NCBI GenBank assembly: GCA_963796875.1
Contig: CAWCNL010000002.1
Coordinates: 1,153,134 to 1,217,133, forward strand
Direction of reading: 5' to 3'
From: an uncultured Actinomycetes bacterium
GTDB taxonomy: Bacteria > Actinomycetota > Thermoleophilia > Gaiellales > JAICJC01
DNA length: 64,000 nt
Made by a program: the position numbers and the translations under genes. The notes under the pieces were generated by a model. The model made no database searches and was not told where the DNA came from. It worked only from the letters and a program-made list of their open reading frames with translations. This document shows, piece by piece, positions 1,848 to 19,517 of this stretch. Position 1 is the first letter of the stretch, and the number at the start of each line of letters is the position of its first letter.

Positions 1848-1849
1848 CC

Positions 1850-3581: not shown

Positions 3582-3632
3582 GGGGGTAACGGCCCCCCCG
3601 GAGAAGGCCGTTGGGTGGAGCCGCGGTTTGGG

Positions 3633-4127: not shown

Positions 4128-4311
4128 TGAGCTTCTCCTTGAGACTGTTGGGACGGAACGCCGGCCGGTTTCGGACGACGCAGAACCAATCGGCCCCCCA
4201 CCGGGGGACACCCATGCCCCTTTTGGGGGATTCCCCGCCGCCCTCGGCCGGGTGATGCCCCTGTTTCCGTGTTTGGCAGGAACCTGCGTGTGAATTGCGA
4301 ACGGGGAAGCG

Positions 4312-5787
4312 ATGCAAAACCACCTTGCGCGGTTCGCCGTTCTGGCCCTGGGCCTGACGGCGGCCGTCGTGCTGTCCCCGGCCGCGGCATTCGCGGCCAC
4401 CAATCTGATCCAGAATCCTGGCTTCGAAACGCTGGGCGCAACCACCCAAACCATGTTCTCGGACACGCTCGCCGACATGAGCGCGTGGACGGTGACGAGC
4501 GGTGGAGCGACCGCCTCCGGCGGTGTGCTGACCCCTACCGGTGCCAAGAAGACCTCGGACATCGCCGTGATCACCGGATCGGATCACACCACCAACGGCA
4601 CGTTCCAGGTGCAGGGCATCCCCACCAACGTCGTCGCGGGCCTCTCCGGCGGCCTGGTGTTCCGCTATCAGGGCACCGGGTCGTTCTACGCGTGCACGGT
4701 GACCAGCAATGCGCTGCAGCTGGTCGAGCGCGACAGCGGCGTGGACACGGTGCTCAAGACCTCGGCGATGAGCGTGCAGGCGGGCTTGCCCGGCTGGCTG
4801 CGCGTGACCGCGACCGGGTCGTCGCTGACCTGCGCGGCGTACGGCAACACCAACAACGCGCCGGGCACGCTGATCGCGAGCGTCACGACCACCGACACCA
4901 CGTACACCTACGGCGCGGTGGGCGTCTACGACACCAACACCACCAACGCCGCCGGAAAGATGCTGACGTTCGACAACCCGACGATCACGGGCACGGGGCC
5001 CGCGAGTTGGGGAGCGCTGACGACGACGGCAGGGACGCCCGGCGAGACGGTCGATACCGTGCAGCCGAACACCGGCACCACCTCGCTGCGGCTCTACGCC
5101 GGCGCCTCGACCGACGACGGCTACGTCGCCCAGACGGGGATCGCGGTCACGGCCAACACGACGTACACGCTCTCGGCCAGCATCGCGACTGCCGGTCTGT
5201 CTGCAGCGACCGGCGCCCAGGTGATCGCGATCGAATCGCCCAGCAACACCCAGACCGTGCTCTCGAGCAGCTCGGCAACGGCCGGGTACACGCTCTACTC
5301 CACCACCTTCACCACCAGGACCAACACGACGTCGGTGGCAATCCGGGTGCGGCTGCTTGGCGCCGGCACGGCCAACTTCGACGATCTATCGCTGGCAGTC
5401 GCCAACACCGTCACCCTTGCGCTCAACACCGCCACGGTCGGACTGGGCAACATCTCGCCGCTGACCTCGCCGCTCACACTGCTCTCGGCGACCACCGCGA
5501 CGGTGGTCTCGAACGCCGGGTGGACGCTCTCGGCACTCGGCACCGGCCCGTTCACCGACGGCGCCGGCGGGCACTCGATCGCGCTCTCGGCGCTCGCGTG
5601 GCGGCGCAACGGCACCACCACATTCACCCCGTTCACCACAACCGCGACCACCGTCACCACCGGCACCGCAACCACCCCGGCAGGCGTGGCGACTCCCGTC
5701 GACTACCGCCTGACCGTCGGCTACTCCGACCCAGCCTCGTCCACCCCGTACTCAACGACGATCACCTACGTCGCCACGACCCCGTGA
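4312..5787 (+). CDS. secreted multidomain protein: ConA/LamG-like jelly-roll + CBM4_9-like module + C-terminal WxL-like domain
   Basis: 491-aa ORF with signal peptide MQNHLARFAVLALGLTAAVVLSPAAAFA. NLIQNPGFE and a second CBM-like stretch ending NFDDLSL. The C-terminal ~135 aa share ATTATVVSNAGWTL and ..STTITYVATTP with the 3633..4127 product. Confidence 0.7.
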   Translation: MQNHLARFAVLALGLTAAVVLSPAAAFAATNLIQNPGFETLGATTQTMFSDTLADMSAWTVTSGGATASGGVLTPTGAKKTSDIAVITGSDHTTNGTFQVQGIPTNVVAGLSGGLVFRYQGTGSFYACTVTSNALQLVERDSGVDTVLKTSAMSVQAGLPGWLRVTATGSSLTCAAYGNTNNAPGTLIASVTTTDTTYTYGAVGVYDTNTTNAAGKMLTFDNPTITGTGPASWGALTTTAGTPGETVDTVQPNTGTTSLRLYAGASTDDGYVAQTGIAVTANTTYTLSASIATAGLSAATGAQVIAIESPSNTQTVLSSSSATAGYTLYSTTFTTRTNTTSVAIRVRLLGAGTANFDDLSLAVANTVTLALNTATVGLGNISPLTSPLTLLSATTATVVSNAGWTLSALGTGPFTDGAGGHSIALSALAWRRNGTTTFTPFTTTATTVTTGTATTPAGVATPVDYRLTVGYSDPASSTPYSTTITYVATTP

Positions 5788-5798
5788 GGTAACCAGCC

Positions 5799-6815
5799 AT
5801 GTCCCGCCGTCCCATCATCGCCGTACTCGCCCTGCTCCTGCTCGGCGCGCTGGCCGCTGTCCCCATCGCCGCGGCCACCGACCAGCCGACCACACCGCTC
5901 AGCCTGGGTGTCGCGCCCTCCAAGCTCCAGCTGCGGCTGAAGCCCGGGCACACTGTGCGAGCCAATCTCAAGATCTACAACAAGGGCTCCAAACCCGTGA
6001 CCATCGACGTGTTCCCGCAGGACTACACGGTCGACATGGACTCCAACGTGAAGTTCCTGCCGGCCGGCACGCTGCGTGGATCGGCGGCGCCGTGGACGAC
6101 GCTCTCCGAGACGCTGCTGAAGGTTCCCGCCGGGGGGTATCGCAACGTGGTCGCGACCATCCGCGTACCGCGGAGCATCCCGCCCGGAACCCACACCCTG
6201 GCAATCCTCTTTCGGTCGCACACCATCACCTCTTCGGCGGGCCTGCGCTACCAGTCTGCGGTGGCGTCGTTGATGGCAGCGGGCGTGACCGACGCCAACG
6301 GCGGAGGGCTGGTGCTGAAGGCCGGCGTGCTCGCCAAGTCGACGTCGGTGCAGTGGAAGTCGCTGCTCTCGGTGCGCTCGCCCAGCGGGCTGATCCACGC
6401 CCTGTTCAAGCCGACCATCACCACCAACATCGCTGTGGTCAACTCGGGCAACACGTTCTTCAATATCCTGCACGGCGCGGTGACCTACAAGAAGGGCCTC
6501 TCGCTGGGCGGCTCTGGCACCACCATCAAGGCGCCGCACTACACGATCCTGCCGGGCTCGACGCGCCTGATCACGATCGCGTGGACGAGTGCGCCGTTCA
6601 TCGGCTGGTCGACGGTGCAGACCAGCTTCTACTACAACCCGACCACCGCGCTCTCGCTGACCTCGCCCGATCGCGTGCTGATCATCCCGTGGAACCTGCT
6701 GTTCGTGGTCACGGTGATGACCGCGCTCGTGGTGGTCTGGCGGCTGATGCGCGCCCGCCGCCGGCGCCGCGCGCAGGCTCCGGGCCGCAAGGTGGTCTGG
6801 GCCAACAGCAAGTAA
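5799..6815 (+). CDS. DUF916/DUF3324-like cell-surface protein with C-terminal membrane anchor
   Basis: 338-aa ORF with a signal peptide. Two beta-sandwich-like halves (..LRLKPGHTVRANLKIYNKGSKPVTIDVFPQDY.. and ..VPAGGYRNVVATIRVPRSIPPGTHTLAILF..). C-terminal TM helix followed by RLMRARRRRR. This architecture accompanies WxL genes in Firmicutes csc clusters. Confidence 0.65.
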   Translation: MSRRPIIAVLALLLLGALAAVPIAAATDQPTTPLSLGVAPSKLQLRLKPGHTVRANLKIYNKGSKPVTIDVFPQDYTVDMDSNVKFLPAGTLRGSAAPWTTLSETLLKVPAGGYRNVVATIRVPRSIPPGTHTLAILFRSHTITSSAGLRYQSAVASLMAAGVTDANGGGLVLKAGVLAKSTSVQWKSLLSVRSPSGLIHALFKPTITTNIAVVNSGNTFFNILHGAVTYKKGLSLGGSGTTIKAPHYTILPGSTRLITIAWTSAPFIGWSTVQTSFYYNPTTALSLTSPDRVLIIPWNLLFVVTVMTALVVVWRLMRARRRRRAQAPGRKVVWANSK

Positions 6816-6822
6816 GCACCCG

Positions 6823-6855
6823 ACGCATACCTCGTGCCAGGCACGAGGTATGCGT
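6823..6855. repeat. palindromic repeat, GTGCC-N-GGCAC family (33-nt perfect palindrome)
   Basis: ACGCATACCTCGTGCC A GGCACGAGGTATGCGT, starting 8 nt after the stop of the 5799..6815 gene. Confidence 0.85.
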
Positions 6856-7012
6856 TCGCCTGCGGTGCTAGAGTCACCGATGCCGGTTTGCGCTTGTCCG
6901 AGAACGCGCCGGTCCGCCGCGTCGCCAACGTCATCGTGAGTCCGCCTCCGCGCATGCGCATCCGCGCGCGCCCAGGCTGGGCCCTATCCGACCCGCGAAA
7001 GAGTGTCTCAAC

Positions 7013-7827
7013 GTGTCCGCAGAACCCGCAGTCGAAGTACATGAGCTGACAAAGAAGTTCGTCCGCCGTGACGGCTCGCGGCGGCGTGGTCACAAGCAGT
7101 GGGCCACCGCGCTTGACGCCGTGTCGTTCACCATCGAGCGCGGCGAGTGCGTGGCGATCCTCGGCCAGAACGGCTCGGGCAAGTCGACGCTGGTGCGGCT
7201 GCTCTCGACGCTGCTCCTGCACGACGGCGGCACGGCGCGGGTGTTCGGCGTGGACGTGTTCAAGCATCCCCGCCAGGTGCGACGCATGGTCAACCGGGTG
7301 TCGGTCGAGGCGTCGTTCTTCAAGCGGATGTCGCCGCTCGAGAACCTCAGCTACTCGGCGCGGTTCTACGGGCTGGGGATCAAGGAGACGCGCACGCAGA
7401 TTCCGCTGATCCTGGAGCGGGTCGGGTTTCCCCCGACCGCGCGACCGAGCCGATGGAGGATCTGTCGCGCGGAATGCAGCAGAAGATCGCGCTGGCCCGG
7501 GCGCTGATGACCTCGCCGATGCTGCTGCTGCTGGACGAGCCGACCACGGGGCTCGATCCGCGCTCCAAACGCGAAGTGCAGGCGTTCGTGGCGTCGATCC
7601 GCGAGTCGACCGACGTGACCACGCTTCTGTGCACCCACGACATGGTCGAGGCCGGAGCGATGGCCGATCGCGTCGGGATTCTCCACAACGGCCGGCTGCT
7701 GTGCCTGGAGCCGACCGCCGACATCCTGGCCCGGTACGAGGCCGACGATCTGGAGGGCGCGTTCCTGGCCGCCACCGGTCGCGAGTTTGAGGACGAGTTC
7801 GACGATCGGGAGGTGGCGCAGCAATGA
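7013..7827 (+). pseudogene. ABC transporter ATP-binding protein (ABC-2/DrrA-like), one frameshift
   Basis: The N-terminal part is in ORF 7013..7507 (Walker A GQNGSGKST). The C-terminal part is in ORF 7147..7827 (signature LSRGMQQK, Walker B LLLLDEPT). The frame switches at the C-run ~7430-7434. Confidence 0.85.
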
Positions 7828-7834
7828 TGAAGGG

Positions 7835-8647
7835 ATGCGTCGAGAGGCGATCGGCTTTGCCGGCATCGTCGAGCGAAACACCTATCTGATCCGGCGGTTC
7901 GTGTGGTGGGAGCTGGCGTGGTTCCTCTACACGATCGCCAACACGCTCACGATCGTCTTCATCGCCAAGGGCGTGGAGGCCTCCGGCGGCCACATCGACG
8001 TGAACCAGACGATGATCGTGCTGCTGATCGGCGCGGTCGTGTGGTCGTATCTCGGGCTGATCTTCGAGATCGTCACCGAGACGGTCGCCTGGGAGCGGTG
8101 GGAGGGCACCATCGAATACACGTTCATGGCGCCGCTGTCGCGCCCGGCGCATCTGCTGGGCATGGGCGCGTTCGCGGTGCTCTACGGCGTGCTGCGCACC
8201 ATCCTGCTGTTCGGCGTGGTGGCGTGGATGCTGGGCGTGAACTTCAGCTAACGCGAACTTCACCGGCGCGATCGTGGTGCTGGCCGTGTCCTCGGTGTCG
8301 TTTGTGGGCATCGGCATGATGACCGCGGTGCTGCCGCTGATCTCGCCCGAGAAGGGCACGCAGCTGGGGTTCATCGCGCAGGGCATGCTGCTGGTCGTCT
8401 CGGGTGTCTATTACCCGGTGTCGGTGCTGCCGCAGTGGATGCAGTGGCTGGCCAAGATCTCGCCGGCCACCTATACGCTCGAGGGGGCCGGCACGCGATC
8501 GTGGACGGTGCGGCGCTGGGGGCGCTGTGGGGCGACATGTGGCCGTTGATCGTGATCGGCGTGATCTCGATCCCCGGGGGGCTCTTCATCTTCAACCGTG
8601 GCGAGGTGTACGCCAAGCGCCACGGCCGCCTGAAGCGATCGGGGTAG
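7835..8647 (+). pseudogene. ABC-2 type transporter permease, two frameshifts
   Basis: Hydrophobic protein spread over ORF 7787..8251 (from ATG 7835), ORF 8274..8549 and ORF 8435..8647. Frame switches at ~8230-8250 and at the G-run 8483-8487. Confidence 0.75.
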
Positions 8648-8744
8648 TGCATAAAGGGGTCAGCCACCTTTTGTGCATCCGTTGCGTTGGTTGCAACCCT
8701 TGGCCTCCGCCCATGCACAAAAGGTGGCTGACCCCTTTATGCAT
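8648..8744. repeat. composite palindromic element (~97 bp; 31-nt arms, 34-nt spacer), TGCA-terminus subtype
   Basis: Left arm TGCATAAAGGGGTCAGCCACCTTTTGTGCAT (8648-8678) is the reverse complement of 8713-8743. Near-copy at 45949-46041. Begins 1 nt after the permease stop. Confidence 0.9.
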
Positions 8745-8761
8745 CGTGGCCTGCGATAGGG

Positions 8762-9733
8762 TTGCGGCATGACCGCAATCGATTCCGCCGAGACACCGCG
8801 CCGCTCGAGGTGCTCACGATGGGCCGTATCGGCGTGGACATCTATCCGCAGACCGCGGGGCCGCTCGAGGGTGTCGAGGCGTTCTCGCGGTTCCTCGGCG
8901 GCACGGCGACCAACGTCGCAGTGGCCGCCGCCCGGCTGGGCCGCCGCAGCGGTGTGGTGACCAGGGTCGGCGACGACCCGTTCGGCCGCTACGCGCGCAC
9001 CGCGCTCGAGGGGTTCGGGGTCTCGACCCGCCACCTGGGGATCGATCCCGATCTGCCCACGCCAGTGGTGTTCGCCGAGCTCGACCCGCCGGCTGACCCC
9101 ACCATCTGGTTCTACCGGTACCCCAAGGCGCCCGACATGACGCTCGCCACCGCCGAACTCGACCGCCCCGCGATCGAGGCGGCCGACATCTTCTGGGCCA
9201 CCGGCACCGGGCTGGCGGACGAGCCCAGCGCCACGGCCACGCGCACCGCGCTCGGCTGGCGCGACCCGGCCGCGATCACGGTGCTCGATCTGGACTGGCG
9301 GCCGGGGCTCTGGCCCGACCCCTCCGCCGCGCCCGGCCGCTACCGCGAGGCGCTGCGGCACGTCTCGGTGGTGGTGGGAAACCGCGCCGAGACGCAGGCG
9401 GCGGTGGGCACCGACGATCCCGACGCGAGCGCCGATGCACTGCTGGCGCTAGGCGTGCGGCTGGCGGTGGTGAAGCTGGGTGCCGACGGTGTGCTGGTGG
9501 CCACCTCCGAGGGCCGCGAGCGAGTTACCCCGCTGCGCGTCGACGTGGTCAACGGCCTCGGCGCCGGCGACGCGTTCGGCGGTGCGCTCTGCCACCGGCT
9601 GCTGGCAGGAGACGATCCCGCCGCCGCCGTGCGGTTTGCCAACGCCGCCGGCGCCTACGTGGTGGGCCAGCTGGCCTGCGCCGACGCCATGCCCACCGAA
9701 TCTCAGGTCACCGCAATCATGGAGCAACGATGA
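8762..9733 (+). CDS. iolC: 5-dehydro-2-deoxygluconokinase (PfkB family)
   Basis: 323-aa ORF with ..LTMGRIGVDIYPQ.. and the PfkB motif GAGDAFGGAL, followed by iolB and iolD. The start is uncertain (TTG 8762, ATG 8819, or ATG 8769 in another frame; see findings). Confidence 0.8.
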   Translation: MRHDRNRFRRDTAPLEVLTMGRIGVDIYPQTAGPLEGVEAFSRFLGGTATNVAVAAARLGRRSGVVTRVGDDPFGRYARTALEGFGVSTRHLGIDPDLPTPVVFAELDPPADPTIWFYRYPKAPDMTLATAELDRPAIEAADIFWATGTGLADEPSATATRTALGWRDPAAITVLDLDWRPGLWPDPSAAPGRYREALRHVSVVVGNRAETQAAVGTDDPDASADALLALGVRLAVVKLGADGVLVATSEGRERVTPLRVDVVNGLGAGDAFGGALCHRLLAGDDPAAAVRFANAAGAYVVGQLACADAMPTESQVTAIMEQR

Positions 9734-10608
9734 CGACCGACTCAACTGTGCTGCACATCCCCGCCGGCGCCGCCGCCGAGGGCGGTGATCCGCTGGCACT
9801 GACTCCGGAGCGCTGCGGGTGGGAGTTCTGCGGGCTGCGGGTGATCGAGCTGGAGCCCGGGCACAGCCGCGATCTGGCCACCGGCGGCGACGAGCTGGCG
9901 GTGCTGCCGCTGGAGGGCGGGCTGAGGGTCGAGGTGGAGGGCGCCACCCACGATCTGGAGGGCCGCGAATCAGTGTTCGACCGGGTTACCGACGCCGTCT
10001 ATCTGCCCCGCGACACCGAGGCCCGGCTGGTGGCCGACCGCCGCTGCCAGGTGGCGCTGCCGTCGTGTCCGGCGCGCACCCGCCGCGAAGTTGCCTACAT
10101 CGATGCCCGCGCCGTGGCCATCGAGATCCGCGGCGCCGGCCGCTCGACCCGGCAGGTGACCAACTTCCTGACGCCCGAGGTCGCGCTGCCCGATCGGCTG
10201 CTGTGCTGCGAAGTGCTGACGCCCCGCGGCAACTGGTCGAGCTATCCGCCGCACAAGCACGACACGCCCGGCGGCGTCGAGGCGGTGCTCGAGGAGATCT
10301 ACTACTTCCGCGTGGAGGGTCCAGACGGCATGGCCGCGCACCGCACCTACGACCTGGAGGAGGGGTGGGACGTCACCGTCACGATCGGCGACGGTGACGT
10401 GTTCCTGATCCCGCGCGGGTATCACGGCCCGTGCATGGCCTCGCCCAACAGCGCCCTCTGGTACCTGAACGTGCTCGCCGGCCCCGAGCCCGAGCGATCG
10501 ATGGCGATCAGCGACGATCCTGCGCACGCGTGGATCCGGCAGAGCTGGGAGGCAGAACCCCGCGACGAGCGCGTGCCCATGACCTCGGCCTACGGGAAGC
10601 ACGCATGA
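9730..10608 (+). CDS. iolB: 5-deoxy-glucuronate isomerase
   Basis: 292-aa cupin-type ORF overlapping the iolC stop by 4 nt. Sits in the conserved iolC-iolB-iolD context. Confidence 0.8.
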   Translation: MTTDSTVLHIPAGAAAEGGDPLALTPERCGWEFCGLRVIELEPGHSRDLATGGDELAVLPLEGGLRVEVEGATHDLEGRESVFDRVTDAVYLPRDTEARLVADRRCQVALPSCPARTRREVAYIDARAVAIEIRGAGRSTRQVTNFLTPEVALPDRLLCCEVLTPRGNWSSYPPHKHDTPGGVEAVLEEIYYFRVEGPDGMAAHRTYDLEEGWDVTVTIGDGDVFLIPRGYHGPCMASPNSALWYLNVLAGPEPERSMAISDDPAHAWIRQSWEAEPRDERVPMTSAYGKHA

Positions 10609-12461
10609 GCGACACCGTGCGGCTCACCACCGGACAGGCCATCGTCCGCTTTCTGGCGGCGCAGTGGACGGTGCGTGACGGCGTCGAGCGACCGCTCTTT
10701 GCCGGGGTGCTCGGAATCTTCGGGCACGGCAACGTCGCGGGCCTCGGCCAGGCGCTGATGCAGGAGCGCGACACGCTCACCTACGTGCCCGCGCGAAACG
10801 AGCAGGCGATGGTGCACATCGCCTCGGCGTACGCCAAGGCGTCCAACCGCATGCAGGCGTGGGCCTGCACGTCGTCGATCGGCCCGGGCGCCACCAACAT
10901 GGTCACCGGCGCGGCGCTTGCCACCATCAACCGGCTGCCGGTGCTGCTCTTGCCCGGCGACGTCTTTGCCAACCGCCGGCCGGGGGCGGTGCTGCAGCAG
11001 CTCGAGCAGCCCGGCTCGCTCGAGACCAGCGTGAACGATGCCTTTCGTCCGGTGTGCCGCTACTGGGATCGCATCTGGCGCCCCGACCAGCTGCCGTCGG
11101 CGCTGCTTGCGGCCACCCGGGTGCTGACCGACCAGGCCGAGACCGGAGCGGTCTGCCTTGCGCTACCGCAGGATGTGCAGGCCGAGGCGTGGGACTTCCC
11201 CGTCGAGCTGTTTGAGCAGCGCAAGTGGGTGATCGACCGGCAGCCGCCGCCGCTCGAGCGCCTCGACCGGGCCGCCGAGTTGATCCGCGACGCGCGCCGG
11301 CCGGTGATCGTGGCCGGCGGCGGAGTGATCTACAGCGAGGCCACCGATGCCCTGCGCGCGCTGGTCGATGCAACCGGAATCCCGGTGTGCGAGACCCAGG
11401 CCGGCAAGGGCGCGATGCCCTACGACCACCCTGCCGCCCTCGGCGCGGCCGGTGCCACCGGCACGTTTGCCGCAAACGTGGTGCTGCGCGACGCCGACCT
11501 CGTGATCGGCGTCGGCACCCGTTACAGCGACTTCACCACCGCCTCGCAGTCGGCCTTTGCCGCCGACGCGCGGTTCGTCAACCTGAACGCGGCCGCGGTC
11601 GACGCGCACAAGCAGTCCGCGCTGCCCGTGGTGGGCGACGCGCGCGCCGCGCTCGAGCTGCTGGCAGCCGCGCTCACCGGGCATGCGGTGGACGAGGGCT
11701 ACCGCGCGCGAAATGCCGAGCTCGTGCGCGAGTGGGACGCCGAGGTCGAGCGGCTCTACTCCCGCGGCGGCGGCCCCATCTTCGCCCAGTCGACAGTGAT
11801 CGGCGCGGTCAACGATCTGTCCCAGCCCGAAGACGTGGTGGTGTGCGCGGCCGGCAGCCTGCCCGGCGACCTGCACAAGCTGTGGCGCACGCGCGACCCC
11901 AAGGGCTACCACCTGGAGTACGGCTACTCGTGCATGGGCTACGAGCTGCCCGGCGGCATCGGCGTGCGCATGGCATCGCCCGCACGCGAGGTGTTCGTGA
12001 TGGTCGGCGACGGCAGCTGGCTGATGATGCCGGGCGAGCTCGCCACCGCCATCCAGCAGCACATCAAGCTCGTGATCGTCCTGATCGACAGCGGCGGGTA
12101 CGCGTCCATCGGCGCGCTCTCCGACTCGGTCGGCACGCAGCGGTTCGGCACGCAGCTGCTCGATGTCGACGGCCAGCCGCTGGGCATCGACCTGGCCGCG
12201 AATCTCGAGAGCTACGGCATCGACGTGCTGCGGCCGCAGACGATCCCCGAGCTGCGCGAGTCCGTGGCAACCGCGCGGGCGGCCATGCAGACCACCGCGA
12301 TCTACGTGCGCACCGATCCGCTGGTCGGCGTGCCCGGCTACGAGTCGTGGTGGGACGTACCGGTCGCCGAGGTCAGCACCGTCGAGACGGTGCAGCAGGC
12401 CCGCGCCGCCTACGAGGCCGCCTTGGCCAAGGTCCACCGCCACCTCAAGCCCCCTGAATAA
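10605..12461 (+). CDS. iolD: 3D-(3,5/4)-trihydroxycyclohexane-1,2-dione acylhydrolase (ThDP enzyme)
   Basis: From ATG 10605 (ATGA overlap with the iolB stop). MSDTVRLTTGQAIVRFL.., ThDP-binding fold, 618 aa. Confidence 0.85.
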   Translation: MSDTVRLTTGQAIVRFLAAQWTVRDGVERPLFAGVLGIFGHGNVAGLGQALMQERDTLTYVPARNEQAMVHIASAYAKASNRMQAWACTSSIGPGATNMVTGAALATINRLPVLLLPGDVFANRRPGAVLQQLEQPGSLETSVNDAFRPVCRYWDRIWRPDQLPSALLAATRVLTDQAETGAVCLALPQDVQAEAWDFPVELFEQRKWVIDRQPPPLERLDRAAELIRDARRPVIVAGGGVIYSEATDALRALVDATGIPVCETQAGKGAMPYDHPAALGAAGATGTFAANVVLRDADLVIGVGTRYSDFTTASQSAFAADARFVNLNAAAVDAHKQSALPVVGDARAALELLAAALTGHAVDEGYRARNAELVREWDAEVERLYSRGGGPIFAQSTVIGAVNDLSQPEDVVVCAAGSLPGDLHKLWRTRDPKGYHLEYGYSCMGYELPGGIGVRMASPAREVFVMVGDGSWLMMPGELATAIQQHIKLVIVLIDSGGYASIGALSDSVGTQRFGTQLLDVDGQPLGIDLAANLESYGIDVLRPQTIPELRESVATARAAMQTTAIYVRTDPLVGVPGYESWWDVPVAEVSTVETVQQARAAYEAALAKVHRHLKPPE

Positions 12462-12488
12462 AAGGGGTCAGACCCCTTTAATTCAGGG
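12452..12488. repeat. simple palindromic repeat, GGGGTC-A-GACCCC family
   Basis: CCCTGAATAAAAGGGGTC A GACCCCTTTAATTCAGGG (one mismatch). Contains the iolD TAA (12459-12461) and, on the other strand, the stop of the 12483..13475 gene (12483-12485). Confidence 0.9.
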
Positions 12489-13475
12489 CGCGATGCGGAC
12501 GGTCTCGCCGGAGAGGCGCGACTGCCGAAACGCGAGACCCGCGCGCAACGCGTGGGCGGCATCCTCGACGCGGGCGTGCGGCTCGGCGCCGCCGATCGCG
12601 TCCACGAAGCAGCGCAGCTGCCGCTTGAGCGCGTCGTGGGTCACGTCGGTGCAGTCTTCCGGCGGCTCCATGACCGGACGCAGGCCGGCGGGATCGCCCA
12701 GCAGCACCTCGCCGCGATTGGCAGCGCGCACGAAGATCGACCCGCCGTCGCCCAGGATCTCGGTGCGCACGTCGTCCCAGTACCCGGCCACCCGCGTCTG
12801 GTCGATCAGCACCACCCCGCCGTTGGCGGTTGCGGCCACGCCGCCCACCGTGGGCGTGTCGCCGAGCTCGGCGTACGGATTGGGCTTCACACCGTGAGCG
12901 GTGACCGACACCATCGGCGCGCCCAGCACCAGCCGCGCCATGTCGAAGTCGTGCACGCCGCCGTCCACCTCGATGCCGCCCGAAACCTCGGCGTTCAGAA
13001 ACGCGGGGGAGGGAGGCGTCGCATCCCACATACACGAGCGCACCAGCGACGGCCGGCCGATCGCCCCGGCGGCCACCAGCCGCAGCGCCTCGGCATACGG
13101 CCAGGCCACCCGCCGCCAGAACCCGACGGCGAGCACCCGGTTGCGATCGATGGCGTGCTGGGCGAGTGCGGGGATGGCATCGGGATCGAACCCGACCGGC
13201 TTCTCGGTCAGCACGTGCAGACCCTGGTCGAGCAGCTCGGTGGCCATCTGCACGTGCAGCGGCGTCGGGGCGGCGGTAACCACCGCGTCCACACCCACAC
13301 CGGGCAGCTGGTCGATCCGCTCGAGCGCGGCAACTCCCGGCGGCGCCAGCCGCTGCGCCACGCCAGGTGCGGGATCGACGATCGCCACCAGCTCGACCTC
13401 CGAAACCTCGAGCGCGGCGGCGATGTGCGTACGGCCCATGCGGCCCGCCCCAACCACGGCCAGTTTCACGCTCAT
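12483..13475 (-). CDS. Gfo/Idh/MocA family oxidoreductase (inositol 2-dehydrogenase-like)
   Basis: Internal ATG 13475 of ORF 12483..13757. MSVKLAVVGAGRMGRTH Rossmann N-terminus. ATGA overlap with the upstream LacI gene stop. Confidence 0.8.
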   Translation of the reverse strand: MSVKLAVVGAGRMGRTHIAAALEVSEVELVAIVDPAPGVAQRLAPPGVAALERIDQLPGVGVDAVVTAAPTPLHVQMATELLDQGLHVLTEKPVGFDPDAIPALAQHAIDRNRVLAVGFWRRVAWPYAEALRLVAAGAIGRPSLVRSCMWDATPPSPAFLNAEVSGGIEVDGGVHDFDMARLVLGAPMVSVTAHGVKPNPYAELGDTPTVGGVAATANGGVVLIDQTRVAGYWDDVRTEILGDGGSIFVRAANRGEVLLGDPAGLRPVMEPPEDCTDVTHDALKRQLRCFVDAIGGAEPHARVEDAAHALRAGLAFRQSRLSGETVRIAP

Positions 13476-14425
13476 GCCGCCGCCCTGACCGGAGCGGTCG
13501 AGCTGCGCACCACCAACCGCGGCGGGATGCGCGTGACGTCGGCCGGCATGGTGCCGGTGCGCAGCGCGCGCACGAGCATGGTCGCCGCGGCCCGGCCCAC
13601 GGCCGGCACGTCGGTGGCCACGGTGGTCAGCTGGAGCCGCACGTGGGCGCCGAGGGGAATGCCGTCGTAGCCCACCACCGAGACGTCGGTTGGTACCCGG
13701 CGGCCCTCGCGCTCGAGTTCGTCGATCACTGCGATCGCCGTCACGTCGTCGTGGCACACGATGGCGGTGGCCTCCCAGCGGTCGGCGGTCAGCTGCATGC
13801 CGAGTTCCGAGACGGCGCGCTCCAGAAGGTCGCCGCGCAGCTCCGCGCCGGCCTCGTTGACCACGGCGTGGCGGGCAAACGCGATGCGGCGGTGGCCCAG
13901 CTCGTGCAGGTGTCCGGCGATCGCCCGAATGCCGATCTCGTCGCAGGCATCGACCCGCCCGATCCCCGCGCGGCTCGCTCCGGCAGCCGCCGCCATGACC
14001 GCGGGCACGCCCGAACGCGACAGTCGCTCCTCCACCTGCGATCCGCGGGTCAGGCCGGCCACGATCACCCCGTCGGCGCGACGTTCGAGCAGCGCCTCGA
14101 TCTGCGCCTCTTCGACCTCGGCGTCTGCGTCGGTACCCACCATCACGAGGCCGAACTCGAACCGCCGCAGCTCGCGCTCCACGGCCACGGCAAGCTGGGC
14201 GTAGAAGGGGTTGACGGCATCAGGCACGATCATGCCGACCAGTCCCGTGCTGCCGCGGCGCAGCGCGCGCGCCACGCCGTCGGGCCGGTAGCCCAGCTCG
14301 TCGATGGCGGTCTCGACCCGCGCGCGCGTTGACGGCGCCACCACCGCGCTGCCGCGCACCACGTTCGAGACGGTCGACTTGGAGACGCGCGCCCGGCGGG
14401 CGACGTCGATCAGGGTTGCCGGCAT
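13472..14425 (-). CDS. LacI family transcriptional regulator (candidate inositol repressor)
   Basis: 317-aa ORF. N-terminal HTH MPATLIDVARRARVSKSTVSNVVRG plus a periplasmic-binding-protein-like sugar-binding fold. Confidence 0.85.
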   Translation of the reverse strand: MPATLIDVARRARVSKSTVSNVVRGSAVVAPSTRARVETAIDELGYRPDGVARALRRGSTGLVGMIVPDAVNPFYAQLAVAVERELRRFEFGLVMVGTDADAEVEEAQIEALLERRADGVIVAGLTRGSQVEERLSRSGVPAVMAAAAGASRAGIGRVDACDEIGIRAIAGHLHELGHRRIAFARHAVVNEAGAELRGDLLERAVSELGMQLTADRWEATAIVCHDDVTAIAVIDELEREGRRVPTDVSVVGYDGIPLGAHVRLQLTTVATDVPAVGRAAATMLVRALRTGTMPADVTRIPPRLVVRSSTAPVRAAA

Positions 14426-15531
14426 CCCGCAGCCTCTTGGAACGCCTGCACCAGCAGGTCGACGTCGGCGGCGGCGTCACGCGCCGTCACCCGCACCCGG
14501 CCGCCGCCGGTGATGGCAGTGTGGAAGTCGCGCAGCTCGCTGCGAAACGCCTCCTCGTAGCTGACCCGGATCGTGCGCTCATCGAGGCCGATCTTGCCGT
14601 CGGCCGTGCGCACCGTGAAGCTGGTCACGAAGTGCCGCAGGTACGGCGACGGGAACAGCAGCTCGATGATGCGGTCGGTGCAGTAGACGGTCATCCGCTC
14701 GCGGTAGTCGGGCACGCCGGCGTTCTTCAGGTGTGCCATCCGCGCGCGGCCGCCCCCCGGCAGCGCGACCGACATCTCGACCGCGCGGCCCTCGTCCCAG
14801 TAGGCGGCCGACACCAGCTGCAGCGGCAGTTCGGCGCCGTAGTGCGCAGCAATGCCGTGCACCAGGCTCAGGTTGTGCACCAGGCAGCCTAGATAGCCGT
14901 CGTGGGCGGTCATCTCGGCGTCGGTCGGCTCGCGGCCGGCCACCCCCGCCGCCATCGCCCGGGTCTGCGCGCGCAGCGCGACCCCCACCAGAGGATCGAT
15001 GTCGCCGCCGTGCGACCACGGCATGTGGCTCACGAACGGCAGGAAGTCGGGGTCGGTGATCTCGATCGAAACGGTGCGGATGTCGGCCGGGTCGTCCGGC
15101 AGCGTCTCGAGCAGCCGCTCGAAGCTGGGGTCGTAGCGCTTCATCGTGCCCACCTGCACCACGAGGCCGGCGGCCTCGGCGCGGTCGGCCACCGCGGCAC
15201 AGTCCTCGGCGGTCAGCGCCAGCGGCTTCTCGCAGAACACGTGCATGCCGGCGTCGAGCGCCGCCAGCGCGATCTCGGCGTGCACCGCGTCGGGCGCGGC
15301 GATCACCACGGCGTCGAGGCCGAGGCCCACGAGTCCCTCGATACCGTCGTGCAGCTCGGTCGCGCCGTAGCGCGCACCCACACCCTCGCGGGCCTTCGCC
15401 GAGGGGTCGGCCACGGCCACCAGTTCGAACCGCTCGCGCTCCTCCCACAGATAGAACGCGTGCTCGGCCTGGGCGATCAGGCCCACTCCAACCAACCCCA
15501 CTCGCAGTCTGCGCATACCGTCTGACGTCAT
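14410..15531 (-). CDS. Gfo/Idh/MocA family oxidoreductase
   Basis: Conserved part of ORF 14410..16233, from ATG 15531 (alternative start 15516). ..RVGLVGVGLIAQAEH.. and EKPLALT motifs. Confidence 0.8.
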   Translation of the reverse strand: MTSDGMRRLRVGLVGVGLIAQAEHAFYLWEERERFELVAVADPSAKAREGVGARYGATELHDGIEGLVGLGLDAVVIAAPDAVHAEIALAALDAGMHVFCEKPLALTAEDCAAVADRAEAAGLVVQVGTMKRYDPSFERLLETLPDDPADIRTVSIEITDPDFLPFVSHMPWSHGGDIDPLVGVALRAQTRAMAAGVAGREPTDAEMTAHDGYLGCLVHNLSLVHGIAAHYGAELPLQLVSAAYWDEGRAVEMSVALPGGGRARMAHLKNAGVPDYRERMTVYCTDRIIELLFPSPYLRHFVTSFTVRTADGKIGLDERTIRVSYEEAFRSELRDFHTAITGGGRVRVTARDAAADVDLLVQAFQEAAGCRQP

Positions 15532-15544
15532 CGACCCTCGCTCG

Positions 15545-15558
15545 TTGGAACGCTCCAA
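15545..15558. promoter_or_regulatory. candidate LacI-family operator
   Basis: TTGGAACGCTCCAA: a 14-nt palindrome (6 of 7 pairs) with the central CG typical of LacI/GalR operators. Lies in the 48-nt gap between divergent iol genes. Confidence 0.4.
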
Positions 15559-15579
15559 ACTGCGATAGCATACCGCGCC

Positions 15580-16497
15580 ATGCCCATTCGAATTGCATCC
15601 GCACCCTGCTCCTACGGCGTCTTTGAGATCACCGTCGACCAACCCGGCCTGCCCGAGGGCGAAGAGCTCGCCCGCGTGATGGCCGAATCCGGCTACGCCG
15701 GCACCGAGCTGGGGCCTCCCGGCTACTTTGGCACCGGCCCCGCGGTGGGCCGCATGCTCGCCTCGCACGGCCTCGAGCTGATGGGGTCGTTTCTGCCGCT
15801 GAGCTTCTCGCGGGCCGAGCAGTTCGGCACCGACTACGAGGCCATGGACCGCGCGCTCGACACGCTCGAGACCGCCGGTGGCGACGAGTTGCCGGTGGTG
15901 CTGCTGTCCGACGCGTTCGTCGAGCCCGACCGCATCAGGTACGCCGGCGACATCGAGAACCACCCCGAGACCTGGCTCGACGAGGCGCGGTTCGCGCTGC
16001 TGATCGAGAACCTCGAGAAGGCAGCCGGCCGCTGCCGCGAGCGGGGGTTCACCGCGTCGCTGCACTACCACGCCGGCACCTACGTCGAGACTCCGCGCGA
16101 GATCGATGCGGTGGTGGCGGCCATCGACACCTCCACGGTCGGGCTGTGCTTCGACACCGGTCACAGCGCGTTTGGCGGCGGCGATCCGCTGGAGCTGCTC
16201 GAGCGCCACGGCGAAGCGGTCAACCACGTGCACATGAAGGACGTCGACCTCGAGGGCCTGCGCCGGCTTCGCGAGGACGGCGGCGACCTGATCGCCGCAT
16301 GGAAGGCGGGCATCTTCTGCGCGCTCGGTACCGGCGATGCGCGGGTGTCGGAGTGCCTGGATCAGCTGCGTGCGCGCGGCTATGACGGGTGGCTGGTGGT
16401 GGAGCAGGATCGCGTGCTGGGCCCTGACGAGCCGTTCGATGTGGCCGTCAGCGACGGCGTCAAGAACCGCGAGTTTCTGCGAGAGCGCGGCCTGTGA
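15580..16497 (+). CDS. sugar phosphate isomerase/epimerase (xylose-isomerase-like TIM barrel; IolE-like inosose dehydratase candidate)
   Basis: 305-aa ORF in the iol cluster, with ..HYHAGTYVETP.. and ..CFDTGH.. metal-site-like segments. Confidence 0.65.
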   Translation: MPIRIASAPCSYGVFEITVDQPGLPEGEELARVMAESGYAGTELGPPGYFGTGPAVGRMLASHGLELMGSFLPLSFSRAEQFGTDYEAMDRALDTLETAGGDELPVVLLSDAFVEPDRIRYAGDIENHPETWLDEARFALLIENLEKAAGRCRERGFTASLHYHAGTYVETPREIDAVVAAIDTSTVGLCFDTGHSAFGGGDPLELLERHGEAVNHVHMKDVDLEGLRRLREDGGDLIAAWKAGIFCALGTGDARVSECLDQLRARGYDGWLVVEQDRVLGPDEPFDVAVSDGVKNREFLRERGL

Positions 16498-17444
16498 GTG
16501 ACCGCGCGGCCGAGCTCGGCCGGCGCCGCAGACTGCATCGCATCACCCGCGACGGCGTTTTCGCACTGGTTGCGATCGATCACCGAGATTCGCTTCAGGT
16601 GGCGTTCGAGGGCGCGGGGCTCGAGCCGCTCAGCGGTGCCGAGATCGCCGAGTTCAAGGGCCGGGTGATCGATGCGCTGACTCCCGCCGCCACCGGCGTG
16701 CTGATCGACGCCGAGCACGGCGCCCAGGCACTGGCCGGCGGGTCTGCCGCGGCGCTTTCCGTGGTGATGCCGCTCGAGGCGCAGGGCTACGGCGACGCTG
16801 CGCAGGGCCGCACGTCATCGTTTCTACCCAACTGGGGGCCCGACCGCGCAGTCCGCGCGGGGGCCGATGCCTGCAAGCTCCTGCTGCCGTTCCGGGCCGA
16901 TCACGACGCGTCCGCGGAGGCACAGCTGGAAGTGGTGCGCCAGGCCGTGGCGGGTTGCCGCGCGGCCGGCCTTCCGTTGATTCTCGAGCCGATCGTCTAT
17001 CCGCTTCCCGGCGAGGACGCGGCCGTGTATGCGGCAGCGTTCCCCGAGCATGTGGTGCGCGGCGCCGAGCGCCTGCAGGCCCTCGAGCCGGACGTGCTCA
17101 AGGTGCAGTTTCCCGTCACCGAAGGCGACGCTGCCGAGTGGTGCCGGCGCATCGACGCGGCCTGTGGGCCGGTGCCGTGGGTGCTTCTGGGCGGCGGCGC
17201 GGCGGTCGACGTGTTTCGCGAACAGGTCGAGGTGGCCTGCGCGGCAGGGGCATCCGGCTACATCGTCGGGCGCACCGCCTGGAAGGGCGCGGTCACGGCC
17301 GATACCGCCGCCCGCGACCGGTGGCTGGTGGAGGTGGGCCGGCCGCAGCTGGCCGCGATCCGCGACCGCGCGCTGCAGATCGCCCGGCCGTGGACCGACC
17401 GCGTGGCGCCGCTGCCCGAGTACGCGAGCAGCTGGCTGGAGTGA
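16494..17444 (+). CDS. class I aldolase-like (beta/alpha)8 protein (LacD/IolJ-like; candidate 5-dehydro-2-deoxyphosphogluconate aldolase)
   Basis: 316-aa ORF with a GTG start overlapping the upstream stop. Sits in the iol context. The family assignment rests on overall resemblance only. Confidence 0.55.
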   Translation: MSDRAAELGRRRRLHRITRDGVFALVAIDHRDSLQVAFEGAGLEPLSGAEIAEFKGRVIDALTPAATGVLIDAEHGAQALAGGSAAALSVVMPLEAQGYGDAAQGRTSSFLPNWGPDRAVRAGADACKLLLPFRADHDASAEAQLEVVRQAVAGCRAAGLPLILEPIVYPLPGEDAAVYAAAFPEHVVRGAERLQALEPDVLKVQFPVTEGDAAEWCRRIDAACGPVPWVLLGGGAAVDVFREQVEVACAAGASGYIVGRTAWKGAVTADTAARDRWLVEVGRPQLAAIRDRALQIARPWTDRVAPLPEYASSWLE

Positions 17445-17538
17445 ATAAGAGGGGTCAGTCGCCATTTATTCACACCGCTTCGGTCGGGCACTTCACGCCG
17501 ACCACGTGAATAAATGGCGACTGACCCCTCTTATGCAC
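17441..17538. repeat. composite palindromic element (98 bp; 33-nt arms, 32-nt spacer), GTGAATAA subtype
   Basis: Left arm GTGAATAAGAGGGGTCAGTCGCCATTTATTCAC; right arm GTGAATAAATGGCGACTGACCCCTCTTATGCAC (one mismatch). Contains the stops of both convergent genes (TGA 17442-17444; TAA on minus at 17531-17533). Confidence 0.9.
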
Positions 17539-18682: not shown

Positions 18683-18683
18683 G

Positions 18684-19517
18684 TCAGGTACGCAGGCGGC
18701 GCACTCCGCGCATCGCCAGGGGGATCGCAAATCCGATCAGCGCGGTCAGGAGCGTCAGGCCCAGCAGCACCGATGCGAGTGCGTTCACCTCGGGGGTGAT
18801 GCCGAACTTGACCTGCGTGTAGATGTAGATCGGAAGCGTGTTCTGGCCGCCGATCAGAAAGAGCGTGATGATGAACTCGTCGAGCGAGAGCGTGAAGGCG
18901 AACAGCCCTCCGGCCACCACCGCGGGCAGGATCAGCGGCAGCACGATGAACCGCAGCCGGTTGAACATGTTCGCGCCCAGGTCGCCCGCGGCCAGCTCGA
19001 GCCGGCGGTCAAAGCTCTGCAGCCTGGCCGCCACGATCAGCATGACAAACGGGGTCACATAAACTGCCTGGCCGATCACCGCCGTCTCGTTGGAGAGCGT
19101 GTAATGCAGCACGTCGGTGAAGAGCGCGAGCAGCCCGACGCCGATCAGAAGGCCCGGGATCATGATCGGCAGCATGAACCCGGCGCGCACGCCCGACCGG
19201 AACGGCAGCCGGGCGCGGGCCAGCGGGAACGCCGCGGCGGTGCCCACGACCGTCGCAAGGATGGTCACCTGCGTGCTGATCTTGAGGCTGGTGATCGCCG
19301 CCTGCTGGATCTGGTAGTCGGCGAACATCTCGCGGTACCAGCTCAGCGTGAGGCCCTGGATCGGCAGCGTTGGGTAGCGGTTGCTGTTGAAGCTGAACAG
19401 CACCAGCAGCACCACCGGGGCGAACAGGAACAGGTAGACGATCGCGGCCCAGACCAGCAGGCTGGTGCGGGCAAGTGTGCCGTGGCGGGCAACGACCTCT
19501 GCGTCTCTAGCCGGCAT
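18684..19517 (-). CDS. ABC transporter permease (PotC-like)
   Basis: 277-aa polytopic ORF of the binding-protein-dependent transport inner-membrane family. Overlaps the upstream permease gene by 11 nt. Confidence 0.8.
   Translation of the reverse strand: MPARDAEVVARHGTLARTSLLVWAAIVYLFLFAPVVLLVLFSFNSNRYPTLPIQGLTLSWYREMFADYQIQQAAITSLKISTQVTILATVVGTAAAFPLARARLPFRSGVRAGFMLPIMIPGLLIGVGLLALFTDVLHYTLSNETAVIGQAVYVTPFVMLIVAARLQSFDRRLELAAGDLGANMFNRLRFIVLPLILPAVVAGGLFAFTLSLDEFIITLFLIGGQNTLPIYIYTQVKFGITPEVNALASVLLGLTLLTALIGFAIPLAMRGVRRLRT

Follow-up and report, generated by a model that had tools for sequence, protein, structure and literature searches.

The REPIN-RAYT systems of Pseudomonas and E. coli, known from the work of Bertels and Rainey, reportedly consist of two inverted REPs that form a long hairpin with a poorly conserved spacer, and each REPIN population is said to have one cognate, single-copy RAYT gene that is flanked by REPs and to persist vertically over long periods. 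Among other REPs, the termini of the GTAG type often provide TAG stop codons (Di Nocera, De Gregorio and Rocco 2013, PMC3733652), and GTAG/CGTC REPs located between convergent genes are separated by under 20 bp from either ORF end while those between co-directional genes hug the upstream ORF (PMC3733652). In the TIRtrons, the TIRYT genes, which encode Y1/HUH transposases, are flanked by inverted repeats sharing the motif GGGGWSAS (PMC3733652). In E. coli, REPs that lie no more than 15 nt from a stop codon cause ribosome stalling and reduce protein output, according to a statement in PMC12306157 that cites Liang, Rudd and Deutscher (2015).

In the window, which is the whole 64-kb stretch of DNA analyzed here, a near-perfect hairpin (CCTGAATAAAAGGGGTC-A-GACCCCTTTAATTCAGG, positions 12452-12488), a single symmetric REP unit, occupies the entire spacer between two convergent genes, iolD (a TPP enzyme, 10605-12461, + strand) and the gene for a GFO/IDH/MocA oxidoreductase (12483-13475, - strand). 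The TAA stop of iolD (12459-12461, +) is found at repeat position +5 and the TGA stop of the oxidoreductase gene (12483-12485, -) at repeat position +1, and the terminal GAA (Glu) codon preceding the iolD stop is repeat-encoded. A REPIN-like inverted doublet at 17441-17538 (units 17441-17473 and 17506-17538, 32-nt spacer) contains the TGA stop of a DeoC-type aldolase gene at position +1 (17442-17444, +) and the TAA stop of a Zn-dependent alcohol dehydrogenase gene at position +5 (17531-17533, -), the terminal Ala (GCA) of the dehydrogenase being repeat-encoded. Both genes ending in the inverted doublet at 53538-53639, an IclR gene (TAG, 53543-53545, +) and an AMP-binding ligase gene (TAG, 53632-53634, -), stop at position +5, and the terminal Glu of both proteins is repeat-encoded. 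Further inverted doublets lie at 26278-26374, where the TGA of a HAD gene (26280-26282) is within a degenerate left tip (cTGAAAGAAAGTG instead of the canonical GTGAATAGAAAGTG) and the TGA of purH (26376-26378) is 1 nt beyond the right tip; at 45943-46042, a member of a GCATAA/GCACAA-tipped subfamily, which overlaps the TAA of a PucR-type regulator gene (46042-46044, -) by one base; and at 36305-36402, whose arms are 100% complementary and which ends 4 nt before the TAG of purE (36407-36409, -). No stop is overlapped by the GCATAA-tipped doublet at 8647-8744 (about 97 nt to the upstream stop and 17 nt to the next gene start) or by the single symmetric unit at 3485-3517 (flanking stops about 70 and about 116 nt off), and for the single symmetric unit at 52184-52216 the nearest stop is a TAG at 52230-52232 (-), 13 nt off. 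A palindrome at 38202-38240 with a GTGCC-N-GGCAC core belongs to a second REP family, and a doubtful ORF of 81 aa with a GTG start (38230-38475, -) stops inside it. The flanking genes of the window are real and have complete C-terminal domains according to Pfam. All coordinates given in the initial annotation for the overlapped stops proved correct on re-examination, although the HAD stop, located properly but described as abutting an element, is actually part of one. The suggestion that several proteins end in a Glu supplied by the repeat holds for IolD, IclR, and the AMP-ligase but not for the aldolase, in whose Glu codon (GAG) only the last G coincides with repeat position 0, and the ORF at 38230 does stop inside the palindrome noted at 38204, but this palindrome is of the second family and the ORF is doubtful.

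A genome-wide search with nhmmer detected 461 units in 264 elements in the 3.43-Mb assembly of this host, whose genome has 68.5% GC. The unit is a 33-nt imperfect palindrome present in high copy number, with one 33-mer occurring in 43 identical copies. Inverted doublets ('><') with spacers of 31-36 nt make up 172 of the 264 elements, and the '<>' arrangement was found in none of the 264. The arms of the doublets are near-identical and the spacers variable, and the doublets fold into stems of 33 bp that enclose about 32 nt of loop. Unit termini read xTGAATA(A/G) or xxGCATAA, with stop triplets in both, and on either strand two of the three frames through the AT-rich tips (forms GTGAATAA/G, xTGAATAA or xxGCATAA) contain TGA and TAA/TAG; TGAATAA is found at inner unit ends, too. 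The core GGGGTCAG is found in the B and C types, two subfamilies that include the units flanking two transposase genes, the D type carries GGGGACAG, which is compatible with the GGGGWSAS motif, and the A type carries GGTGTCAG, so that a TIRYT-type GGGGWSAS sequence is present in the B, C, and D types. In the 64-kb window TGAATAR occurs 20 times as compared to 1.27 expected. The co-resident second REP family has a GTGCCWGGCAC core and tips without stop triplets. TGAATAA tips are kept in 7 of 7 genomes of the genus, on different cores. Neither a GTAG nor a CGTC tag was found in the unit tips of the family, and a direct repeat or target-site duplication flanking the elements, as expected for MITEs, was not found. 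Outside position 0 the base composition of the flanks is featureless, with no conserved motif and no TA target, and a target-site duplication or a TA target was consequently rejected.

Three matches to PF01797 were detected in the genome, two of them above the cut-off alone and the third only when combined with its neighbours in the same frame. For each of the three transposase genes, the flanking repeats within about 120 nt belong to a single subfamily, and each subfamily has a RAYT-like gene of its own. The profile of the REP-associated tyrosine transposase (NF047646) was matched over its full length with 62.6-79.3 bits, the cut-off being 80. By inspection, the translation of one gene (L001) contains the motifs SNHVHLV and FRYIAYNP and that of another (L002) SNHVHLL and FRYVAWNP, and the transposases are therefore predicted to carry the HUH motif and the catalytic Tyr. 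One RAYT-like copy appears frameshifted; an intact RAYT-like protein is encoded at C2:1394203-1394835. A search for related loci with the RAYT as query led to one distant MAG. The RAYT-like proteins are assumed to transpose the units. With 461 units of 33 nt the family has the short, high-copy, mostly extragenic palindromes typical of REPs, and its doublets show the inverted pairs, less conserved spacer, and long hairpin typical of REPINs; this family structure and the RAYT association mark the palindromes as hairpin repeats of the REP/REPIN type, which are probably mobile.

About 366 element ends face a gene 3' end in this genome, the gene calls being those of a codon-usage caller (apparent coding density 78%) in which frameshift errors could affect some 3' ends. 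The element tips supply the stop codon of about 145 genes, corresponding to about 40% of the gene-facing ends. TGA is supplied at offset +1 for 57 genes and TAA/TAG at offset +5 for 84-88 genes, whereas any other single offset accounts for at most 21 genes and the +1 peak exceeds each single downstream offset by a factor of 3-5. In 30 convergent pairs both stops are in one element. TGAATA tips provide the stop at +1 in 55 cases and at +5 in 44 and are read through in only 3, and GCATAR tips provide it at +5 in 38 cases and are read through in 5, despite two of their three frames being open. In contrast, the second REP family with its stop-free tips overlaps stops on only 13 of 271 gene-facing sides and abuts them directly, with peaks 18-19 nt from its centre. 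The same pattern is found in G005, a genome of the same genus whose repeats have another core; there, 47 genes stop at +1 and 43 at +5. About 4% of genes here and about 3.5% in the sister species are terminated by a putatively mobile repeat. The TGAATAR excess, the offset spikes, and the contrast with the second family clearly show that the overlap of repeats with stops is not due to chance, and the overlap first noticed in the window is a genome-wide phenomenon.

Between convergent genes are found 126 of 263 elements, as compared to 16% of all intergenic regions. Convergent spacers in G005 have a median of 4 nt, with 38% of the pairs overlapping, and where G005 sites are orthologous to elements of this genome the median convergent spacer is 3 nt. 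Because the native convergent gap is only about 3 nt, any inserted element must overlap gene ends. At co-directional sites the median gap is 1 nt to the upstream stop and 101 nt to the next start, the latter being correlated with the length of the corresponding empty spacer in G005 (rho 0.43, p = 0.01). A shortage of room was rejected as the only cause of the overlap, as co-directional elements followed by a long spacer sit just as close to the stop. For about one quarter of the gene-facing ends the nearest stop is over 30 nt away, and 161 element ends point towards gene starts. Native stops beside elements are rich in TAG/TAA.

For a comparison of C-termini, 1708 orthologue pairs with G005 were used (2.72 Mb of G005 covered), a genome that is among the closest available for comparison and only about 75% identical in protein. 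The same C-terminal end was shared by 62% of the controls (n = 1119), 54% of the +1 (TGA) class (n = 37, p = 0.31), 64% of genes with adjacent stops, and 23% of the +5 (TAA/TAG) class (n = 48, p = 7e-8). The repeat TGA is exactly at the native stop in 58% of repeat-less orthologues, as compared to 63% of controls. Judged from these alignments, TGA-type overlaps leave the protein unremodelled with its stop at the native position, and TAA/TAG-type overlaps remodel the C-terminus. The terminal residues of the +5 proteins (n = 88) are repeat-encoded E in 47 and A in 40 cases and Q in 1 case, with penultimate codons of the form NNT. In outline, the insertion of repeats into gene ends with an alteration of the C-termini, as proposed in the initial annotation, is supported by the REP/REPIN character of the elements with their cognate RAYT-like transposases, by the G005 orthologues that have no TGAATAR near the stop, and by the changed C-termini of the TAA/TAG type (23% against 62%); no such alteration is seen for the TGA type. 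It had also been argued there that identical stops in orthologues lacking the repeat would make the overlap coincidental; the +1 class does match its repeat-less orthologues about as often as controls do, yet its frequency rules out coincidence.

In the window, the iolD orthologue of G005 is seven residues longer (…HVAPVDPLPEGSA*) and has no repeat at the site, which contains a different 37-nt spacer. A simple insertion without deletion at the iolD hairpin was rejected, as joining the flanks gives no orthologue-like C-terminus. The Zn-dependent alcohol dehydrogenase orthologue in G005 is five residues longer, and the aldolase orthologue has its TGA within a TGAATAA-tipped repeat as well, but one with a different core. 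TGAATAR is absent near the G005 stop for 145 of the 186 element-bearing gene ends with an orthologue. Elements occupy the same gene ends in both species, with different cores and mostly in different registers (odds ratio 5.6, p = 4e-9), and as a register is shared at only 7 of 41 such sites, frozen inherited junctions were rejected and independent colonisation is more likely. In G005, the stops orthologous to element-bearing gene ends are poor in TGA and rich in TAG/TAA, with a TGA use of 0.42 in the orthologues of +1-class genes versus 0.65 in the background. A metagenome scan yielded a single contig, 92% identical, with an element at the same site; both arms are identical (66/66 nt) and the loop drifts, and a 12-nt indel at the element boundary alters the C-terminus of the neighbouring protein. 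A search for contigs encoding the aldolase found none.

We consider it probable (roughly 0.75) that insertion of REP/REPIN hairpins combined with selection at gene ends accounts for the stop overlap, and we infer that insertion followed by selection gave rise to the pattern; active targeting of stop codons may contribute. Elements accumulate at gene 3' ends, and in co-directional spacers only the stop-proximal edge would be free of start signals. As convergent genes abut and the stop edge is free of start signals, surviving insertions would be those on the stop or within a few nucleotides of it. An ORF entering the AT-rich tip would be closed at once. In the TGA frame the repeat stop would take the place of the native one at the same codon, so that the protein would be unchanged, and in the TAA/TAG frame a few residues would be gained or lost and the last ones, x-Glu or x-Ala, would be encoded by the repeat. 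Third-frame insertions, in which the ORF would read into the hairpin, are almost absent, presumably removed by selection. Two observations are set apart from this explanation. The +1 peak is not obviously predicted by uniform insertion plus selection and hints at targeting or at microdeletion between native and repeat stops, and the TGA-poor, TAG/TAA-rich stops of the G005 orthologues are unexplained by the insertion-selection model.

A more tentative explanation places the preference at the time of insertion, with the RAYT-like transposase or an ssDNA step favouring stops or AT-rich, TA-containing sequence. It would agree with the repeat TGA coinciding with the native stop as often as controls share ends, with a +1 peak that exceeds every neighbouring offset, and with co-directional elements having the whole native spacer downstream. 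That stops are directly abutted by the second REP family as well, whose tips are stop-free, that stops beside elements are TAG/TAA-rich like the orthologous stops in G005, and that gene ends occupied in both species hold different cores, mostly in other registers, points in the same direction. However, the flanks contain no conserved motif or target-site duplication outside position 0, the TGAATAA at inner unit ends indicates that this sequence is the repeat's own and not derived from the target, about one quarter of the gene-facing ends are far (>30 nt) from a stop while 161 ends face starts, and selection in a genome whose spacers measure about 3 nt would produce much of this pattern, too. 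The simple form of such targeting, with TGA as a target-derived trinucleotide as in IS608, was rejected because TGAATAA is present at the inner ends of every unit and because the G005 orthologues of the +1 class use TGA less, not more (0.42 versus 0.65).

It is also conceivable, albeit rather doubtful, that the TGAATAA/TTATTCA tip is a selected 'safe-landing' module that closes both frames at zero-spacer convergent junctions, perhaps together with a stop-codon preference (TAG/TAA) of the transposase. Under the conserved tip the cores are interchangeable, being of the GGGGTCAG type here and GTGCCWGGCAC in G005 and in G001. If this were true, REPINs could colonise and repeatedly re-colonise convergent junctions, and the family would be an intragenomic replicator with ends adapted to the genetic code of its host.

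Retention of the elements by function, as bidirectional terminators, protectors of mRNA 3' ends, or translation attenuators, appears unlikely as the explanation of their position; under this reading, copies with their foot on the stop would have been kept for the usefulness of that geometry. The predicted RNA folds of the elements range from -20 to -73 kcal/mol (z -5.6 to -11.7), with -27.7 and -30.6 kcal/mol on the two strands for the hairpin at 12452-12488 (z about -6), -67.8 and -69.4 kcal/mol for the doublet at 17441-17538 (z about -11), -73.2 kcal/mol for that at 53538-53639, and -68 to -73 kcal/mol for doublets; these hairpins are very stable on both strands, which would fit a function. 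The symmetric singlets, too, have a GC inner stem between A-rich and T-rich tracts, the latter being U-rich in RNA. Nevertheless, a scan for consensus intrinsic terminators in positions 1-20000 of the window flagged none of the elements, which is explained by the T-rich run (TTTATTCA) being part of the stem, and the elements are predicted not to be classical stem-plus-U-run terminators. Conservation of the arms in the relative with 92%-identical flanks (66/66 nt, with a drifting loop) would fit a function as well, but gene conversion, or a constraint imposed by transposase binding, would be just as likely to produce it. A function would also be compatible with the conservation of TGAATAA tips on different cores across seven genomes of the genus and with the proximity of E. 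coli REPs to stops, which the statement in PMC12306157 ties to translational control, but many copies are located away from stops. A terminator-like or mRNA-end function of the elements is possible.

Independent convergence of unrelated native terminators on a palindromic sequence ending translation as well as transcription, the other origin put forward in the initial annotation, would account for elements at most transcription-unit ends and for stops on both strands of the tips, but it finds no support and is highly improbable, as hundreds of near-identical copies fall into few subfamilies (43 identical 33-mers, for example), REPIN doublets and cognate RAYT-like genes flanked by their own units are present, and most sites are empty in the sister species. 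Least probable of all is an ORF-calling or assembly artefact in which frameshifted or spurious ORFs run to the first AT-rich sequence, since in spite of the low apparent coding density (78% versus 89% in G005) and the frameshifted appearance of one RAYT gene, 85 overlapping genes have reciprocal-best orthologues of at least 50% identity with alignments reaching the C-terminus, proteins of the +1 class and their orthologues end at exactly the same position, Pfam domains of the window genes are complete, and the cleaner G005 assembly has the same pattern.

About 88 proteins of this genome carry one or two repeat-encoded C-terminal residues, which is relevant for genome annotation and for reconstructing C-terminal evolution, as well as for the persistence of selfish hairpin repeats in genomes almost without intergenic DNA. 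In Actinomycetota, the elements also offer a natural series of stop-in-hairpin geometries that could show the influence of a very stable stem at the stop codon on translation termination, on ribosome rescue, and on transcription termination in both directions.

Like the GTAG/CGTC REPs and REPtrons (PMC3733652), the repeats described here are short high-copy palindromes, often organized as inverted dimers, and like those REPs they are enriched between convergent and co-directional ORFs. They differ in their tips, xTGAATA(A/G) or xxGCATAA, which on either strand bring two stop triplets, each in a different frame, and in their host, an uncultured actinobacterium; moreover, the scale is quantified here (about 40% of ends and 30 doubly stopped pairs) and the C-terminal effect is measured against orthologues. 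As the phenomenon had already been noted for GTAG REPs, the conceptual advance is limited, and the family is a large, not conceptually new, example of known REP behaviour. With the TIRtrons it shares Y1/HUH transposase genes between inverted repeats and a GGGGWSAS-type core, here GGGGTCAG, in addition to dispersed singles and dimers, whereas its roughly 460 units are far above the 'moderately abundant' TIR families (PMC3733652), one subfamily has GGTGTCAG, and a second family with a GTGCCWGGCAC core is co-resident. The doublet hairpin, the flanked RAYT-like gene, and the long vertical persistence, with the same element still in its place in a relative that is 92% identical, are features in common with REPIN-RAYT systems, from which the present one differs in RAYT-like proteins just under the NCBIfam cut-off (62.6-79.3 versus 80 bits), in having no GTAG tag, and in a mobility that is putative. 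Finally, as with the stop-proximal REPs of E. coli, a stable hairpin is located at or just after the stop of the upstream gene, but here the stop is inside the stem itself, and an equivalent regulatory effect is a possibility.

The initial annotation had placed stop codons of flanking genes inside palindromic repeats, and on rechecking in the window every one of these coordinates was right. The hairpin at 12452-12488 contains the stops of iolD (TAA, 12459-12461) and of a convergent GFO/IDH/MocA oxidoreductase gene (TGA, 12483-12485), the element at 17441-17538 contains those of a DeoC-type aldolase gene (TGA, 17442-17444) and a Zn-ADH gene (TAA, 17531-17533), and GAATAG in the arms of the element at 53538-53639 forms the end of both the IclR and the AMP-ligase gene. 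The HAD stop (TGA, 26280-26282) lies in the degenerate left tip, the AT-rich unit end, of the element at 26278-26374 and the purH stop 1 nt beyond its right tip; at 46042 a stop overlaps an element by one base and at 36407 stop and element are 4 nt apart. According to Pfam, the window genes ending at elements are all real and have complete C-terminal domains. An 81-aa ORF said to stop in the palindrome at 38202-38240 does exist, but it is doubtful as an ORF and the palindrome is from a different repeat family. The final Glu (GAG) of the aldolase, previously ascribed to the repeat, is not encoded by it.

Iterated nhmmer searching of the host assembly (G000; 3.43 Mb, 8 contigs, 68.5% GC) recovered 461 REP-like 33-nt units, which make up 264 elements, among them 172 inverted '><' doublets with spacers of 31-36 nt, 80 singlets and not a single '<>' doublet. 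Unit subfamilies are GTGAATAGAAGGTGTCAGGCAGTTTCTATTCAC, GTGAATAAGAGGGGTCAGTCGCC(A/T)TTTATTCAC and (GT)GCATAAAGGGGTCAGCCACCTTTTGTGCA(T), and the symmetric singlet form is TGAATAAAAGGGGTC-N-GACCCCTTTTATTCA. Between copies the arms are near-identical and the spacers poorly conserved. Across dozens of copies of GTGAATA-tipped subfamilies both 33-nt arms are invariant and the 31-36-nt spacers appear almost unrelated (in the window, 17474-17505, 36338-36369 and 53572-53605); in GCATAA-tipped doublets the spacer is still recognizable and found in both orientations. In a few doublets (contig C2 of the host assembly at 24879, 47180 and 55760) the spacer measures 3-4 nt instead of the usual length of about 33 nt, and the units stand head to head, their outer half degenerate. 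Predicted folding energies of -20 to -30 kcal/mol for singlets and -68 to -73 kcal/mol for doublets are far below those of shuffled controls.

Gene 3' ends face 366 of 527 element sides in the host genome, and 126 of 263 elements are located between convergent genes, as compared to 16% of intergenic regions overall; in thirty convergent pairs a single element holds the stops of both genes. When stops were placed by offset relative to the element's outermost base, two spikes appeared, at +1 (the TGA of xTGAATA; 57 genes) and at +5 (TAA or TAG; 84-88 genes), and every other offset held at most 21. At TGAATA tips 55 genes stop at +1, 44 at +5 and only 3 read through, and at GCATAR tips, which provide a stop in just one of three frames, 38 stop at +5 and 5 read through. 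Genes were our own calls in both G000, for which a codon-usage ORF caller was used, and the same-genus genome G005, and the apparent coding density is 78% in G000, whose assembly may hold frameshift errors, versus 89% in G005. The G000 assembly is 74.6% complete in its 8 contigs.

As alternatives, it had been proposed that the repeats remodel C-termini or that terminators converged on a common sequence. The second proposal is not supported. The elements may have a terminator-like function; a simple terminator scan of window positions 1-20000 flagged none of them. For the first, proteins were compared with those from 2.72 Mb of G005, a distant relative (1708 reciprocal-best pairs, median identity 74%), retaining pairs with at least 50% identity and alignments reaching to within 25 residues of both ends. 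The C-terminal end was the same as in the orthologue for 62% of controls from element-free neighborhoods (n=1119), for 64% of proteins whose native stop lies 1-8 nt ahead of an element (n=44) and for 54% of those stopping at +1 (n=37, p=0.31; 58% where the orthologue lacks a repeat), whereas at +5 only 23% had the same end (n=48, p=7e-8). Remodeling is thus upheld for +5 stops and not for +1 stops, where ends match about as often as in controls and the repeat's TGA therefore takes the codon of the native stop, with no change to the protein. Among +5 pairs, G000 has the shorter protein in 38% (controls 19%); in a further 40% (controls 18%) it has the longer one, mostly by 1-2 residues. Glu (47) or Ala (40) is the last residue of 87 of the 88 +5 proteins, and the codon before it is a rare NNT that comes partly from the repeat. 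IolD ends in …HLKPPE in G000 and in …HVAPVDPLPEGSA in G005, and the Zn-ADH in …FDPRA and …FDPSQPVTTP, respectively.

A direct example of junction turnover is provided by a metagenome contig (Ga0265327_10101135, L157) that is 92% identical to G000 C2:861999-863375 and carries the same element, with 66 of 66 arm nucleotides unchanged and 3 changes in the 34-nt spacer. At the boundary of the element, an indel of 12 nt alters the end of the neighboring protein (…IVR in G000, …IITAE in L157): in L157 the gene terminates in a remnant TGAATAG motif immediately outside the intact element, whereas in G000 these 12 nt are missing and the gene stops at the element's own TGA.

Part of the contact between elements and stops follows from lack of space. 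Convergent genes in the genus (G000 and G005) have a median spacer of 3-4 nt and 28-38% of them overlap, commonly by 4 nt. G005 convergent genes without an element have a median spacer of 4 nt, with 38% overlapping, and its empty spacers orthologous to G000 element sites a median of 3 nt, so that no element of about 100 nt could lie there without contacting the ends of both genes; tips closing two of three frames per strand would make such contact tolerable. Shortage of space is not the whole explanation. Of co-directional upstream ends, 37% overlap an element and 24% lie within 8 nt, and the median distance to the next start is 105 nt. Matched co-directional sites without an element in G005 number 34; here the gap on the upstream side in G000 has a median of 1 nt, and the gap on the downstream side is correlated with spacer length in G005 (rho 0.43, p=0.01). 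The element is thus placed at the spacer's stop-codon edge, in agreement with the general REP distribution (Di Nocera et al., 2013; PMC3733652). This placement may come from an insertion preference or from selection against disrupted start signals. Three observations hint at some targeting of stops. One is the height of the +1 peak. Another is that native stops beside elements are rich in TAG and TAA, as are orthologous G005 stops (TGA fraction at those without any repeat 0.37 vs 0.54, convergent, and 0.44 vs 0.68, co-directional). Finally, the same gene ends are repeatedly occupied in both species by different repeat cores (26/115 vs 44/891, odds ratio 5.6, p=4e-9), and in most cases the registers differ.

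The host genome has three Y1_Tnp (PF01797) genes with HxH and Tyr motifs, which match the whole profile of the REP-associated tyrosine transposase family NF047646 (NCBIfam) at 62.6-79.3 bits, just missing the cut-off of 80. Each is flanked by units of a single subfamily: one by GGGGTCAGTCGCC-type units, one (L003, C2:~1147.3-1148.1 kb, about 5 kb left of the window) by the GCATAA-tipped GGGGTCAGCCACC type, and one (C2:~89.4 kb) by two copies of a second REP family. The RAYT-like gene L003 is spread over two frames, being a pseudogene or bearing an assembly indel; the coding density and completeness of G000 suggest assembly frameshift errors. The second family has about 240 copies genome-wide with a GTGCCWGGCAC core (GTGCC-W-GGCAC) and (A)CGCAACAAAC or CGCATACCCC arms, and occurs in the window at 6823-6855, 38202-38240, 38536-38564, 60214-60232 and 61626-61664. 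Its tips lack complete stop triplets, stops overlap it at only 13 of 271 sides, and its arms directly adjoin native stops, with peaks 18-19 nt from the palindrome center. TAA is unusually frequent among these adjoining stops.

The pattern TGAATAR-N15-19-YTATTCA was counted 22-302 times in 7 of 7 genomes of the genus and 13-35 times in four other genomes of the order; it did not occur in any of the remaining 30 relatives, and the reversed pattern, used as control, had no matches. Two same-genus genomes, G005 and G001, combine the same TGAATAA…TTATTCA tips with a different core, GTGCCWGGCAC, suggesting that tips and cores are modular, and +1 and +5 stops are used by 47 and 43 G005 genes, respectively. 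The G005 unit (G005:C1:8560-8590, for example) contains GGTGCC-W-GGCACC, is a perfect 33-nt palindrome and occurs mostly as singlets.

Repeats and transposase genes together form a REP/REPIN-RAYT arrangement. Element flanks show no target-site duplication and the units contain neither a GTAG nor a CGTC tag; the GGGGTCAG core conforms to GGGGWSAS, the motif of TIRYT-type repeats (Di Nocera et al., 2013). Di Nocera, De Gregorio and Rocco (2013) described convergent REPs with less than 20 bp to the end of either ORF and noted that the ends of GTAG REPs frequently supply TAG stops, and REPs at most 15 nt from a stop stall ribosomes (Liang et al., 2015, as cited in PMC12306157). The kind of phenomenon is therefore already known; the scale of stop supply and its effect on proteins are put into numbers here. 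In contrast to the REPs of Di Nocera et al. (2013), the repeats reported here have tips of another sequence, in which each strand contains two stop triplets, and reside in an uncultured actinomycetotal MAG.
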